DNA of 57,811 nt. Origin: Escherichia phage vB_EcoS_AVIO78A. Location of the stretch: the sequence record MZ726797.1; one strand, 5' to 3'. Below are positions 52,183 to 56,702 of the stretch, piece after piece. Below the pieces are notes generated by a model. The model worked only from the letters and a program-made list of their open reading frames with translations, did not search any database and was not told the DNA's origin. Each line of letters starts with the position of its first letter. Position 1 is the stretch's first letter. The translations under genes and the position numbers were made by a program.

Positions 52183-52219
52183 AATAGTTCTTGACAGATT
52201 ACCAACCCTCCCCGATAAT
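52176..52219 (+). promoter_or_regulatory. conserved promoter, rightward (-35 TTGACA, 17 bp, -10 GATAAT)
   Basis: best sigma70 match of the family. Confidence 0.65.
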
Positions 52220-52253: not shown

Positions 52254-53021
52254 ATGGCTAACATTAACTCCATTCGCAAGCTGTCTGATACCGATAAAAC
52301 CAACGTAAAACGTGGTAACGCATATCGCATTGATCCGCGTATTATCAAGATTCGTCCAGGACATAACCCACGGGGTGTGTTTACCGACAACTACTGGGAA
52401 ACTGAAGCAGCACTGGCACACATTGAAAACTTTCGTCAGGCTTATACCAATGGCGATTTCGTTCCACCCATCGTGGTACAGGTTGTTGACGGTGTTCCGT
52501 ATGTTCAGGATGGTGAGCATCGTTTACGTGGTGTATTGGCAGCTATTAAAGCCGGGACGCCGATTCTGACAGTAGATGTTGTTGAATCATCTGGTGATGA
52601 ACTACAACAGACCCTGACACTGTTAAAAGGTAATGAAGGTAAACCGTGGTCACCTGTTGAACGTGCTGTTATTTACGGTCGTTTCCGTTCATATGGCATG
52701 AGTGTTGAGCAGATCGCTACACAGGTTGGTAAAACCGTCCAACACGTTTACGAACAACTGAATATTCTTGATATGCCGCTGGAACTTAAACGCCGTATCC
52801 AGAACGGTGAAATCAGCGCATCAGCAGCCATTCGTCAGTTTAAAGCAGGTGATAAAGAACCAGTAGTCACGCGTCGTCCGCCTGCTAAACTGGTACGGTC
52901 TGCAGTGGAAGCAATCCGTGGTGAATGGTCTGTAACCCGTTCGGAAGGTGGTAAAGTCCTGGTTGAACTTACCGCTGAACAGTTTGAAGCGTTAAAAGCA
53001 CTGAAGGAGCACCAGTTATGA
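52254..53021 (+). CDS. ParB-like nuclease-domain protein
   Basis: DGEHRLRG motif typical of ParB/Srx N-terminal domain. Confidence 0.55.
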   Translation: MANINSIRKLSDTDKTNVKRGNAYRIDPRIIKIRPGHNPRGVFTDNYWETEAALAHIENFRQAYTNGDFVPPIVVQVVDGVPYVQDGEHRLRGVLAAIKAGTPILTVDVVESSGDELQQTLTLLKGNEGKPWSPVERAVIYGRFRSYGMSVEQIATQVGKTVQHVYEQLNILDMPLELKRRIQNGEISASAAIRQFKAGDKEPVVTRRPPAKLVRSAVEAIRGEWSVTRSEGGKVLVELTAEQFEALKALKEHQL

Positions 53022-53209
53022 AAAACCGCAAGGCAAAGATTCTGTTAGTTCGTAGAAACGCTCCCGGCGTCTGGCAGTGGGTGAGACTCAGCAACAGACG
53101 GATGGGGTTGATGAAACATTACGGGATGATGGATTGTGGTTTTTGCAAAAAGCCCAGCGCGGCGCAAAACCGCTGGAAAAACCACTGTCGCATTAATAAG
53201 GAAAACTGA
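53018..53209 (+). CDS. small basic protein
   Basis: ORF track; ATGA overlap. Confidence 0.4.
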   Translation: MKNRKAKILLVRRNAPGVWQWVRLSNRRMGLMKHYGMMDCGFCKKPSAAQNRWKNHCRINKEN

Positions 53210-53210
53210 T

Positions 53211-53474
53211 ATGGCAACTTTGACAAAAAAAGAACGGGCATGGTTGAACGAATTACAGGACGTTCTTGATCGCTGCCCATCACCGAAAAAAATTGGTTTT
53301 TACACCATTGGCGATAAAAGCATTTACCTGTATGACCTGCGCCGCATGGATGAAATCATGGAGGCTCTTGATAATCGTTCGTCAATGGATTGGTGTGTTG
53401 CTGTTCATGATATGAATGCCGGATTTGATGAAAAGATTTTATTCCCCTCATCAGTTGAAAGTACAGCAGGATAA
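53211..53474 (+). CDS. hypothetical protein
   Basis: ORF 53136..53474 trimmed to ATG 53211 with AAGGA RBS. Confidence 0.45.
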   Translation: MATLTKKERAWLNELQDVLDRCPSPKKIGFYTIGDKSIYLYDLRRMDEIMEALDNRSSMDWCVAVHDMNAGFDEKILFPSSVESTAG

Positions 53475-53484
53475 GGACTAACAC

Positions 53485-53898
53485 ATGACCACTATTACCA
53501 AAGAGCGACTGCTGACAATCAGGCAGTGGCGCGAAACATACGGACCTGGTAGCAACGTTGTACTGCCAGCAGAAGAAGCGGAAGAACTGGCACGAATTGC
53601 TCTGGCATCGCTGGAAGCAGAGCCGATAGGTTTCCGTTGCAGGCGCAATGATAACCTTGGTGATTGGAGTTACGTATATCATCGAGAGCCAGATGATTTT
53701 GAGCGCAAACATTTAGTGATAGAGGGCATTTACGCCGCCCCTCCAGCACCGGTAGTGCCTGAAGAAGCAACTCCGGAAAACGTAGAAATGCTCTCTGGCT
53801 ATGTTTCAACGTACAAATTAACCGATAGCGAGCGCGATATTGCTGCCGAAATATGGAACGCCTGCCGCGCCGCCATGATTCAGGGAAAAGGAGAGTGA
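53485..53898 (+). CDS. hypothetical protein
   Basis: ORF track. Confidence 0.5.
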   Translation: MTTITKERLLTIRQWRETYGPGSNVVLPAEEAEELARIALASLEAEPIGFRCRRNDNLGDWSYVYHREPDDFERKHLVIEGIYAAPPAPVVPEEATPENVEMLSGYVSTYKLTDSERDIAAEIWNACRAAMIQGKGE

Positions 53899-53928
53899 TA
53901 TGACCACTATAACCGGGAGTAAAAAGAA

Positions 53929-54192
53929 ATGACTAAAATATACGTTACAAAATATGCGTTAACAACTGGTGTTTTCAGTGTAGATGCTAAAATAAAATCA
54001 GATGGTACAAGTGCAACTTTCGACGACAAAAGAAACATGCCACAGTTTGTTTATGGTAGAGATTTTTGGTTGACACCGGAAGAGGCTTTTATTGATTGCG
54101 AGCGTCGTCGAATAAACAAATTAAAATCTCTGGAGAAACAGAAACAACAAATCGAAAGTTTAAACTTTCAACTTATTAAGGAACGTTTATGA
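53929..54192 (+). CDS. hypothetical protein
   Basis: ORF track. Confidence 0.45.
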   Translation: MTKIYVTKYALTTGVFSVDAKIKSDGTSATFDDKRNMPQFVYGRDFWLTPEEAFIDCERRRINKLKSLEKQKQQIESLNFQLIKERL

Positions 54193-54413
54193 CTATCCGA
54201 CTGATGAATCCAACCGTTGCCCGTGATATTAAACCGGGTGACAAGATTGAAGTATTTAACGAGTGGTACTGGGTACGTTATATCAATTACCACGGGTCAC
54301 AGATTACGCTTCGTTTACAGCCGGAAGAGGAACCGCTATCACCATTTTGCGAAAACGACCGCGTTGTGGTGACAGTGCCAGAAGATCTAATGATTGATGT
54401 CGAGGTGCGTTAA
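54189..54413 (+). CDS. hypothetical protein
   Basis: ORF track. Confidence 0.45.
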   Translation: MTIRLMNPTVARDIKPGDKIEVFNEWYWVRYINYHGSQITLRLQPEEEPLSPFCENDRVVVTVPEDLMIDVEVR

Positions 54414-54665
54414 ATGACTGTATATGAAATGGAAGGTTTTCTTCGTGGTAAATGTGTTCCGGGCGACCTGAAAGTTAACGAAACAAACGCTGAATATCTG
54501 GTACGTAAGTTAACACTTGTGGATCAACAACTGGAAGCACTGGATAAACTAGCAGGTCAATTTCTACAATTATCAATGGAACGTGGCGGTCGTGTTTCAA
54601 CCGCGTATGCTGAGTGTGCTGATTTGTTGGCTAGAACTGTTCGCGACATAAGGAAAAACACATGA
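54414..54665 (+). CDS. hypothetical protein
   Basis: ORF track. Confidence 0.45.
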   Translation: MTVYEMEGFLRGKCVPGDLKVNETNAEYLVRKLTLVDQQLEALDKLAGQFLQLSMERGGRVSTAYAECADLLARTVRDIRKNT

Positions 54666-54868
54666 ATACTAACGATTATTTATATCTTGTATTAGTTCCA
54701 ATTGCTGAGGTATTCAGATCACGTTTTCCGAAGGGTTCTGCGCCTTTTAGTGCTATTCGTAACAATAAAACCTGTCGCGTTAAATTTACAAGCAAACGGC
54801 TTGAAAAAGAATGGCAGGAATTTTGTAAAAATAACGAATTGAAAAATGATCCAAAACTGGAATACTAA
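54662..54868 (+). CDS. hypothetical protein
   Basis: ORF track. Confidence 0.45.
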   Translation: MNTNDYLYLVLVPIAEVFRSRFPKGSAPFSAIRNNKTCRVKFTSKRLEKEWQEFCKNNELKNDPKLEY

Positions 54869-55112
54869 CAGGTTCCCTCGTAACGGTTTGAAGTGGTCCG
54901 CACGAGATTTGGCGTTATTAAAAATTAATGCAGGAAAGATCAGTGCGGACGAAATAGCGTATTACCTTCGCCGGGACGTTGAAGCGGTGCACATTAAAGC
55001 GTCACGTCTCGGTATATCACTGGTAACCAATAAATGTAAACGTGGTCATGCGCGAGTTTACCAAAAAGGTAGATGGCGCTGTCCTGAGTGTAGAAAATTA
55101 AAAGGGTATTGA
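54846..55112 (+). CDS. putative DNA-binding protein (HTH-like segment plus C-terminal zinc ribbon)
   Basis: ISADEIAYYLRRDVEAVHIKASRLG; CxxC...CPEC. Confidence 0.4.
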   Translation: MIQNWNTNRFPRNGLKWSARDLALLKINAGKISADEIAYYLRRDVEAVHIKASRLGISLVTNKCKRGHARVYQKGRWRCPECRKLKGY

Positions 55113-55408
55113 AGATGAGCACTAAAGAAATTGTTAAAGCACTTGAAACTGGTGACTGGTCTAATGTGTCTGTTGGTAACAAAGCGATCATTCAGGCGGC
55201 TATTAATGAATTAAAATCATTAAGTGAAAGTCGTTTATCACTAGCTCAAAACGCACTGGAAATGTGCAATGAAGTCTTTTGTGCTGGTTATCATGAGTCA
55301 ATGATATATAAAGGAATGATGGAAAGTACAGGTAATCGTAATAAATTCCCACACCCCATAAAAACTGTTATTGAAACTGCTATACAGGTGATCGCTGATG
55401 AAAATTAA
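55109..55408 (+). CDS. hypothetical protein
   Basis: ORF track. Confidence 0.45.
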   Translation: MKMSTKEIVKALETGDWSNVSVGNKAIIQAAINELKSLSESRLSLAQNALEMCNEVFCAGYHESMIYKGMMESTGNRNKFPHPIKTVIETAIQVIADEN

Positions 55409-55631
55409 AAACATGGCTGCAAGTGGTCTGTCAGGCCGTATCTTTTACGGTACGATGGAAACAAAAGACGGTGGTCAGTCTGGTAAATGGTTAGCAGGAA
55501 AGCAAGACGTTACTGATATGGCGATCCGTGCAGTTGCTGAACATTGTCATCTGACAGGAAACGAATATTCATTTACGCTTAACGACGGTCGTGTGATTAC
55601 ACTGGCAGTAACAGAGGTACAACCATCATGA
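55398..55631 (+). CDS. hypothetical protein
   Basis: ORF track. Confidence 0.45.
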   Translation: MKIKNMAASGLSGRIFYGTMETKDGGQSGKWLAGKQDVTDMAIRAVAEHCHLTGNEYSFTLNDGRVITLAVTEVQPS

Positions 55632-56197
55632 CACCTGAACAATTCGCAACAGCAGCACACGGTGATCAACTTCGTAAGTACACCAACGACCCATATGTGA
55701 ACCACTGCCGGAACGTTGCTGAACTGGTTAAACGCTATGGTGGTACGCCGGATATGGTTACCGCTGCCTGGCTACATGACGTCGTTGAAGATACGCCCGT
55801 GACTGTGGGTGATGTGTGTTCGCAATTCGGTGAAACTGTGGCACGTTATGTTGATCAGCTTACTGATGTGAGTCGTCCACACCACGGCAACCGCGTTAAA
55901 CGTAAAGCACGGGATATCGACCATTTATCACTGGTTGAACCTGTGGTGAAAACTATAAAACTGTGTGATCTACTGGATAACACATCTTCAATTGTCCGAC
56001 ACGATCCGAAGTTTGCTGTAACATACCTGGCTGAAAAACAACTCATGCTTGCTCACCTGTCAGACGCAAGCAACCAGGAGCTATACGCGCTTGTTGAGCG
56101 TGAATTGTTCAAAGCCAAATACAAACTAACGAATGTCCAGTTGACCGCGTTTGACAAACACTACGACGCACTGGTTAAAGCGATGGGGGAGTTGTGA
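55628..56197 (+). CDS. HD-domain phosphohydrolase (RelA/SpoT-type hydrolase fold; possible (p)ppGpp or signalling-nucleotide hydrolase)
   Basis: HGDQLRKYTNDPYVNHCRNVA...AAWLHDVVEDT matches the HD motif pattern. Confidence 0.6.
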   Translation: MTPEQFATAAHGDQLRKYTNDPYVNHCRNVAELVKRYGGTPDMVTAAWLHDVVEDTPVTVGDVCSQFGETVARYVDQLTDVSRPHHGNRVKRKARDIDHLSLVEPVVKTIKLCDLLDNTSSIVRHDPKFAVTYLAEKQLMLAHLSDASNQELYALVERELFKAKYKLTNVQLTAFDKHYDALVKAMGEL

Positions 56198-56409
56198 TTA
56201 TGAATAAAGCGTCGCCTGTAGAAATACGCAAGTGTCTTGAAATGGCAAACAGTCTTGCACACGCAGGGATTAGATTTGTCCCTGTACCGGTAACCAGTGA
56301 TGATGAATTTAATTCGCTGGTTTCTCATTCTTACGGGATACTGGACAAAATAGCAGACGATTGTGACACCACCAACCGCCAGTTCGAAAGCCTGGCTAAT
56401 CATGAATAA
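56194..56409 (+). CDS. hypothetical protein
   Basis: ORF track. Confidence 0.45.
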   Translation: MIMNKASPVEIRKCLEMANSLAHAGIRFVPVPVTSDDEFNSLVSHSYGILDKIADDCDTTNRQFESLANHE

Positions 56410-56472
56410 CTACCTGTTCATACTATTCATCAGTGCGCTCTATGTGGCGCACGTTTTCTATGAGGTGTACCG

Positions 56473-56667
56473 ATGAAGAATCATGATGCAACGAAACTCG
56501 ATCAAGCGTTTTTGATTAACAAATTCTATGAGCGTTATCCGCTTTCTGAATTTAAAAATGATTCCGAAAGAGCAGACGCACTAGGTTATTTCATGGCAGG
56601 TGCTGAATTACAACGATTGGGTCATTTTATCGAATACAATGACAAGGATGATAGCGACGAATACTAA
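56473..56667 (+). CDS. hypothetical acidic protein
   Basis: ORF track. Confidence 0.45.
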   Translation: MKNHDATKLDQAFLINKFYERYPLSEFKNDSERADALGYFMAGAELQRLGHFIEYNDKDDSDEY

Positions 56668-56668
56668 C

Positions 56669-56702
56669 AAAAAAAGCGGGGTAATTATCCCCGCTATCTT
56701 TA
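56669..56702. terminator. bidirectional terminator between convergent genes
   Basis: AGCGGGGTAATTATCCCCGCT hairpin flanked by A-run and T-rich tract. Confidence 0.6.

Follow-up and report, generated by a model that had tools for sequence, protein, structure and literature searches.

A PaSpo-like small alarmone hydrolase gene in the accessory island of a 9NA-like Escherichia phage

We analysed the open reading frame (ORF) located at positions 55628–56197 on the plus strand of Escherichia phage vB_EcoS_AVIO78A (record MZ726797.1; 57,811 nucleotides, the whole stretch being referred to hereafter as the window). Our analysis confirmed that this ORF encodes a small alarmone hydrolase (SAH), that is, a single-domain RelA/SpoT homologue (RSH), of the PaSpo-like type. 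The original prediction, made from the letters of the sequence, was that of a RelA/SpoT-type HD-domain hydrolase, and it is borne out by the family profile, by the catalytic residues and the fold, by the domain architecture and by purifying selection. Both the enzyme family and the idea of phage-borne SAHs have already been published, and the window SAH is a further, uncharacterised member. We suggest, with moderate confidence, that in this 9NA-like virulent phage it most likely acts as a stand-alone PaSpo-related enzyme reversing the damage caused by toxSAS toxins.

Family, catalytic residues and predicted fold

The ORF is complete, begins with ATG in the ORF list and encodes a single-domain protein of 189 aa followed by a stop codon. 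The Pfam profile HD_4 (PF13328), corresponding to the RSH hydrolase domain, scored 55 bits over residues 5–122 (E = 1e-14; gathering cutoff, 27.2), and HD_4/HD were the sole significant Pfam matches of the protein. PHROG 990, annotated as "metal-dependent phosphohydrolase", was also matched (E = 4e-38). The NCBIfam profile spoT_relA aligned only over positions 4–122 of 687 (E = 1.5e-20), scoring 73 bits where the cutoff is 499. As this match was confined to positions 4–122 and fell far below the cutoff, the protein corresponds to the hydrolase module alone and not to a long RSH, and no RelA_SpoT synthetase (PF04607), TGS or ACT domain was found in it with the Pfam and spoT_relA profiles. Sequence matches in the PDB, obtained with HMMER, were Lmo0812, human MESH1 and SpoT/Rel hydrolase domains (E values of 1e-14 to 1e-9), as well as Drosophila MESH1 and bacterial SAHs, and 1882 database homologues were recovered at E ≤ 1e-5. 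Matches of this strength go far beyond what chance would give. The PaSpo subfamily of SAHs is that defined previously (Atkinson 2011; Jimmy 2020). We assigned the window protein by its nearest characterised relative, in a direct comparison with SSU5 PaSpo, Lmo0812, MESH1, PaSAH and RelH: SSU5 PaSpo gave 135 bits and 52% identity, versus at most 58 bits and at most 28% identity for Lmo0812, MESH1, PaSAH and RelH.

Residue conservation was assessed in an alignment of 45 homologous sequences, in which H11, R16, K17, Y18, T19, Y23, H26, H50, D51, E54, K111, D114 and N118 were invariant and D55 was kept in at least 90% of the sequences. The three motifs quoted in the original prediction were all found in the translation (HGDQLRKY, residues 11–18; NHCRNVA, residues 25–31; AAWLHDVVEDT, residues 46–56), and the loss of catalytic His/Asp residues, which would have argued against a hydrolase, was looked for in these homologues and the residues were found to be retained. 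The N-terminal substrate-binding motif HGDQLRKYTNDPYVNH (residues 11–26; positions 55658–55705, plus strand) was delimited from this alignment and from the HMMER alignment to 3nr1/5vxa. It is followed by AAWLHDVVEDT (55763–55795, plus strand), which contains the HD metal-binding dyad H50-D51 and the catalytic ED dyad E54-D55, and by KLCDLLDN (residues 111–118; 55958–55981, plus strand), which is aligned with "kladklyn" of MESH1 and contains the fourth metal ligand, D114, and the phosphate-binding N118. These last two residues, both invariant, extend the initial list of motifs. In the HMMER alignment, H26, H50, D51 and D114 align with H35, H61, D62 and D122, the metal ligands of MESH1; E54 and D55 align with E65 and D66, its ED dyad, and R16, K17, Y23 and N118 with R24, K25, Y32 and N126, which bind phosphate. 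The structures 5vxa and 9chy, determined for the MESH1 D66K variant, show a lysine opposite D55 of the query, corroborating the correspondence with D66.

The AlphaFold2 model built from the homologue alignment was all-helical, with a mean predicted local distance difference test score (pLDDT) of 96.7 and a predicted template modelling (TM) score of 0.91. The best structural match in the PDB identified with Foldseek was human MESH1 (TM score of 0.77/0.81; root-mean-square deviation, rmsd, of 2.1 Å), followed by the P. aeruginosa SAH, C. glutamicum RelH, a Leptospira SAH, Lmo0812 and SpoT/Rel hydrolase domains (7qpr, 6s2t and 1vj7). The best 40 PDB structural matches were all SAH, Mesh1, Rel or SpoT hydrolase domains, with no other family among the significant ones, and the neighbours among predicted viral structures were HD or "(p)ppGpp hydrolase" proteins from many phages. 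The alignment and the model also delimited a C-terminal extension of about 24 residues (56123–56194, plus strand), the final helix of which (residues 169–188) was confidently predicted. This extension is specific to the clade of 9NA-like phages, most homologues stopping near alignment position 165, and it is retained in an 88%-identical orthologue (P0002). A tail common with the longer one of SSU5 PaSpo was considered and ruled out, since no significant alignment was obtained.

The gene is under strong purifying selection, its C-terminal part included: pairwise dN/dS values (Nei-Gojobori) for the window, Bas82, PJ16 and the metagenomic 9NA-like sequence L005 ranged from 0.04 to 0.09, with dS values of up to 0.84. 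Neither the reading frame nor any catalytic residue has been lost in the window, in Bas82, PJ16, PDP46 or 536P12, or in the metagenomic orthologues. A shorter metagenomic orthologue of 167 aa (P0005) is 92% identical over the N-terminal 81% and has a shorter, divergent C-terminus (…HLTDEQATRSYTRLLSVNCLKPNTN), consistent with a frameshift deleting the last two helices.

Gene organisation, accessory island and distribution

A Shine-Dalgarno-like GAGG motif, read directly from the letters, is present on the plus strand at positions 55614–55617, 10 nt 5' of the ATG of the SAH gene. This ATG overlaps the stop codon (ATGA) of a 77-aa ORF on the same strand (55398–55631) matching DUF7446 (Pfam E = 1e-19). 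The recurrent 4-nt overlap at the start of SAH genes raised the possibility of a conserved partner gene, but this was ruled out because the corresponding ORFs in L005, L006, L007 and SSU5 are unrelated to DUF7446; the 77-aa ORF is thus a neighbour and not a conserved partner. Downstream, a small plus-strand ORF matching DUF1382 (56194–56409; Pfam E = 3.5e-23) starts either at the GTG at position 56194, overlapping the SAH stop codon, or at the ATG at position 56200, 3 nt from that stop codon. This arrangement indicates that the SAH gene forms part of a translationally coupled string of small plus-strand genes.

The window corresponds to a 9NA-like (Nonanavirus/Sashavirus) virulent siphophage, the closest records being those of PJ16, PDP46, KarinMuster_Bas82, 536P12 and BDX09P1; Bas82 was assigned to the 9NA-like group in the BASEL paper. 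The SAH gene is one of the cargo genes of an accessory island of variable content, which holds about 13 small ORFs (53018–56667, plus strand, about 3.7 kb), flanked by a ParB-like gene (52254–53021) and a convergent gene on the reverse strand (56700–57482). At the island position, Sasha has only three small genes, without the SAH, which is also absent from Sergei, Solent and 9NA. PJ16 and Bas82 have kept the SAH, next to different neighbouring genes. This variable island content and the patchy presence of the SAH identify it as an accessory gene carried in a recombination hotspot. Stretches of the island share 94–98% DNA sequence identity with phages such as the Stx-converting lambdoid phages and P1. 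In particular, the segment 53018–53915 (ORFs 53136–53474 and 53485–53898) is 94–98% identical to Stx-converting lambdoid phages, P1, RCS47 and the Yersinia phage vB_YpM_39, in matches annotated as Ea22/EaA/DUF550/DUF551 (PHROGs 60/5117/660). Identity to temperate phages in this segment suggests that virulent and temperate phages have recently exchanged genes within the same island.

A candidate sigma-70 promoter (TTGACA-17-GATAAT, 11/12 positions; 52191–52219, plus strand) was identified by consensus matching just 5' of the ParB-like gene, and the operon containing the SAH gene may be driven from there. Between the plus-strand island and the reverse-strand gene, a GC-rich, bidirectional terminator-like hairpin was found in the same way (56675–56695), at a position equivalent to that of a terminator annotated in Sasha. 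Together, the promoter-like site and this hairpin may delimit the SAH transcription unit. Other island ORFs include one of 68 aa (54662–54868) matching PHROG 3379, "endonuclease" (E = 2e-38), and one of 88 aa (54846–55112) with CxxC...CxxC-like cysteines and a weak match to a D5-like transcriptional-regulator PHROG. The reverse-strand ORF beyond the hairpin (56700–57482) encodes 260 aa with five tandem copies of EPPVSRV; it is hypothetical in all relatives and its Sasha orthologue is annotated with a "direct tandem repeat region".

No protein with a synthetase domain was found among the 10 neighbouring ORFs, nor beside the homologues in L005–L009 and SSU5. A toxin-antitoxin arrangement of the toxSAS kind, with the SAH as a type IV antitoxin like ATfaRel, was therefore ruled out, as no synthetase was present in any neighbourhood examined. 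A component of a defence system was likewise ruled out, PADLOC-DB giving 0 families at E ≤ 1. ARAGORN identified no tRNA genes in the window that might represent a parallel strategy against anti-tRNA defences. The homologue contexts opened were a 9NA-like phage, a 42-kb phage contig, a prophage-like region of Burkholderia beside a phage lysozyme gene, and a small-gene island of Endozoicomonas; each of these has the SAH as a gene standing alone amid small ORFs of no assigned function.

Near-identical copies (97–98%) are present in the public records of Bas82 (98%), PJ16, PDP46 and 536P12. Product names in public records are inconsistent, including "metal-dependent phosphohydrolase", "polyphosphate hydrolase" (a legacy name) and "RelA/SpoT family (p)ppGpp synthetase"; the records concerned are PQ783785.1 (PDP46), OQ955832.1 (PJ16) and KC139632/KC139650 (FSL SP-062 and SP069), the gene being divided over two contigs in the draft assemblies of the last two phages. 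The name "(p)ppGpp synthetase" in the PDP46 record is wrong, because the protein has no PF04607 match and is too short. We suggest that these entries should be labelled "small alarmone hydrolase". In the Sashavirus BDX09P1 (OZ035775.1, 55836–56404), a 2-nt insertion at the L49-H50-D51 codons (55772–55774 of the window) leads to a stop after 58 residues, and would represent either a natural pseudogene or an assembly error. More broadly, tBLASTn detected the family in 347 phage records, including phages of Pseudomonas, Erwinia, Caulobacter, Vibrio and Rhizobium and many jumbo phages.

Proposed function and alternatives

RSH hydrolases remove a 3'-pyrophosphate (or a 2'/3'-phosphate). Systems of the toxSAS type, such as CapRel, confer a widespread abortive-infection immunity in which translation is blocked via tRNA pyrophosphorylation. 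The PaSpo of SSU5 and the PbcSpo of PVP-SE1 neutralise five out of five toxSAS, namely CapRel, PhRel, PhRel2, FaRel2 and FaRel, and SAHs were put forward as a possible means for incoming phages to get past toxSAS defence (Jimmy et al. 2020; PMC7229694). According to Kurata et al. (2021), four of the five toxSAS toxins pyrophosphorylate tRNA at its 3' CCA end, and MESH1 and ATfaRel restore the aminoacylation of FaRel2-pyrophosphorylated tRNA in vitro. In later work, removal of the tRNA modification was attributed to PaSpo(SSU5), which was used to detoxify FaRel2 and CapRel(SJ46) and so allow their expression. The CapRel systems defending E. coli originate from Salmonella phage SJ46, Enterobacter and Klebsiella, and these sources lie in the host range of the phage group of the window. 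On the basis of the toxSAS experiments with PaSpo and other SAHs and of this host range, we propose that the window SAH is a Mn2+-dependent 3'-pyrophosphohydrolase that would undo toxSAS damage (tRNA-PP and (pp)pApp), its substrates and infection role being inferred from homology to PaSpo(SSU5), ATfaRel and MESH1.

By homology, Mn2+ would be held by H26, H50, D51 and D114 and, together with the E54-D55 dyad, would activate the water molecule removing the pyrophosphate esterified to the ribose 3'-OH, with R16, K17, Y23, K111 and N118 holding the phosphates of the substrate. Expressed from the accessory small-gene island during infection, the enzyme would counter the toxSAS (CapRel, PhRel, FaRel2 or FaRel) firing in the infected cell: the CCA ends of tRNAs would be freed of their 3'-pyrophosphate, allowing translation to resume, and (pp)pApp would be degraded. 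Degradation of (p)ppGpp or (p)ppApp, as initially suggested, is consistent with the family; toxSAS products, including 3' CCA-pyrophosphorylated tRNA, were missing from that prediction and appear to be the best-supported target class. Hydrolysis of (p)ppGpp is a probable additional, promiscuous activity of the SAH, which would keep (p)ppGpp low. A hypervariable island location, with presence or absence among close relatives, is typical of counter-defence cargo. More tentatively, the SAH of 9NA-like phages, with its clade-specific C-terminal helix, could be a dedicated counter-defence enzyme repairing tRNA 3' ends pyrophosphorylated by CapRel-type immunity while E. coli or Salmonella is being infected. 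In a more radical variant, the true substrate of the SAH may be an undescribed 3'-phosphorylated defence signal.

Several points weigh against the reversal of toxSAS damage. Identity to PaSpo, at 52%, leaves room for a shifted specificity, and the clade-specific C-terminal helix is unexplained. The protection of a phage from toxSAS by a phage SAH in a real infection was not found in the literature searched, which offered co-expression and in vitro evidence, or hypotheses only; direct in vitro repair of tRNA is documented for MESH1 and ATfaRel, and not for PaSpo, in the text of Kurata et al. (2021) consulted. In the BASEL study, Bas82, which carries a 98% identical copy, was not noticeably more robust to the defence panel, although the inclusion of toxSAS in that panel is not established. 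Finally, the absence of the gene from Sasha, Sergei, Solent and 9NA and its frameshift in BDX09P1 indicate that the phages can do without it in some hosts at least.

The foremost alternative, which we regard as rather unlikely, is that the SAH suppresses the stringent response, the relevant substrate during infection being host (p)ppGpp. The enzyme would then supplement SpoT against the RelA-driven accumulation that otherwise follows the drain of the phage on amino acids and nucleotides, and would keep rRNA and tRNA transcription, translation GTPases, primase and purine synthesis going for phage production. The family and fold evidence is the same for this role as for the reversal of toxSAS damage, and a promiscuous enzyme would make the two compatible. 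Three of the structural neighbours (MESH1, the SAH of P. aeruginosa and RelH) have been deposited and described as (p)ppGpp hydrolases, and the role is often proposed in phage-genome papers (PMC12846349; discussion in PMC7229694). The breadth of the family over 347 phage records, many hosts and jumbo phages also fits a general physiological benefit better than a response to one defence family. However, the literature searched gave no record of a PaSpo-type enzyme hydrolysing (p)ppGpp, the documented PaSpo phenotypes being the neutralisation of (pp)pApp- and tRNA-directed toxins. Furthermore, a generally beneficial gene would be expected to belong to the core genome, whereas very close relatives differ in whether they have the SAH, and one has it frameshifted. 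Such irregular presence in near-identical phages is better accounted for by a conditional benefit linked to defence than by a general one.

It is improbable that the SAH acts mainly as a MESH1-like phosphatase, removing a 2'- or 3'-phosphate from a metabolite (NADPH or PAPS) or a defence signal and not from alarmones or tRNA. The best structural matches are indeed MESH1 structures with NADPH and PAPS (5vxa and 9chy), the versatility of RSH hydrolase chemistry is stressed by Kurata et al. (2021), and the SAH carries a conserved clade-specific C-terminal helix. However, identity to MESH1 is 26–28%, versus 52% to PaSpo, and the neighbouring genes give no sign of NADP or sulphur metabolism. The hydrolysis of a cyclic-nucleotide defence signal, another possibility put forward in the original prediction, found no support: the chemistry of RSH hydrolases is the removal of a 3'-pyrophosphate (or 2'/3'-phosphate), neither a PADLOC defence-system family nor a cyclic-nucleotide phosphodiesterase family was matched, and the fold neighbours are all RSH hydrolases. 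The suggestion that the gene is an inert or decaying passenger, gained by recombination as mosaic cargo and playing no role in the window phage, is highly improbable: it draws on the recombination-prone island with its segments 94–98% identical to temperate phages, on the absence of the gene from several relatives and on the BDX09P1 frameshift at the HD motif, but this frameshift could be an assembly error, the dN/dS values are 0.04–0.09 over dS of up to 0.84, the window copy and those of Bas82, PJ16, PDP46 and 536P12, as well as the metagenomic orthologues, have an unbroken frame and all the catalytic residues, and translational coupling and a Shine-Dalgarno motif are present.

If a dedicated role in counter-defence against CapRel-type immunity is true, the SAH would provide the first demonstrated toxSAS escape by enzymatic damage reversal, rather than by trigger mutation or sensor inhibition. 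It is a clean, intact and strongly constrained PaSpo-type gene in a virulent lineage of coliphages and Salmonella phages. Bas82 is publicly available (BASEL), and natural relatives devoid of the SAH, one frameshifted variant and CapRel plasmids exist. With the Bas82 copy, the SAH-minus relatives and the existing plasmids, both the counter-defence and the stringent-response hypotheses are directly testable.

Comparison with known systems

The long RSH proteins SpoT and Rel have a homologous hydrolase domain, and differ from the window SAH in having the synthetase, TGS and ACT domains that it lacks. The SAH of P. aeruginosa (6yvc), RelH of C. glutamicum (7qod) and Lmo0812 of Listeria (4yf1) are single-domain enzymes with the same fold and catalytic residues. 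Their identity to the window SAH is 22–26%, and they serve in host housekeeping or self-protection, whereas here the enzyme is phage cargo. Metazoan MESH1 (HDDC3; 3nr1, 5vxa and 9chy), which has been reported as a (p)ppGpp hydrolase and as a NADPH phosphatase, is the best structural match (TM score of 0.77–0.81; rmsd of 2.1–2.8 Å over about 170 residues). The metal ligands and the ED dyad occupy identical positions in the two proteins, despite a sequence identity of just 26–28%, but MESH1 is eukaryotic and is devoid of the extra terminal helix of the window SAH.

ATfaRel, a PbcSpo protein from Cellulomonas marina, and the SAH of PVP-SE1 neutralise all the toxSAS tested, by a mechanism that the window SAH is proposed to share. 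They belong to another SAH subfamily, and are likened here to the window SAH by description and not by sequence. In vitro, ATfaRel takes the pyrophosphate off the CCA end of tRNA. It shares an operon with its toxin, FaRel, and acts as a type IV antitoxin, whereas the window SAH has no synthetase nearby.

The nearest characterised protein is SSU5 PaSpo (SSU5_099), from a Salmonella phage, which is 52% identical over residues 6–147 (145 residues; E = 6e-45). The phages are of different kinds, SSU5 being temperate, a phage-plasmid of 103 kb, and the window phage being a virulent siphophage, 9NA-like and about 58 kb in size; the two proteins differ in length (213 aa versus 189 aa) and have unrelated C-terminal tails. 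Toxin-neutralisation experiments with toxSAS exist for PaSpo(SSU5), whereas the window SAH is known here from its gene alone. Nevertheless, both proteins have a single HD_4 domain and are phage-encoded and stand-alone, with no adjoining toxSAS. All the catalytic motifs (LHDVVEDT and IKLxDLLDNTSSI) are common to the two enzymes, and both phages infect enterobacteria.

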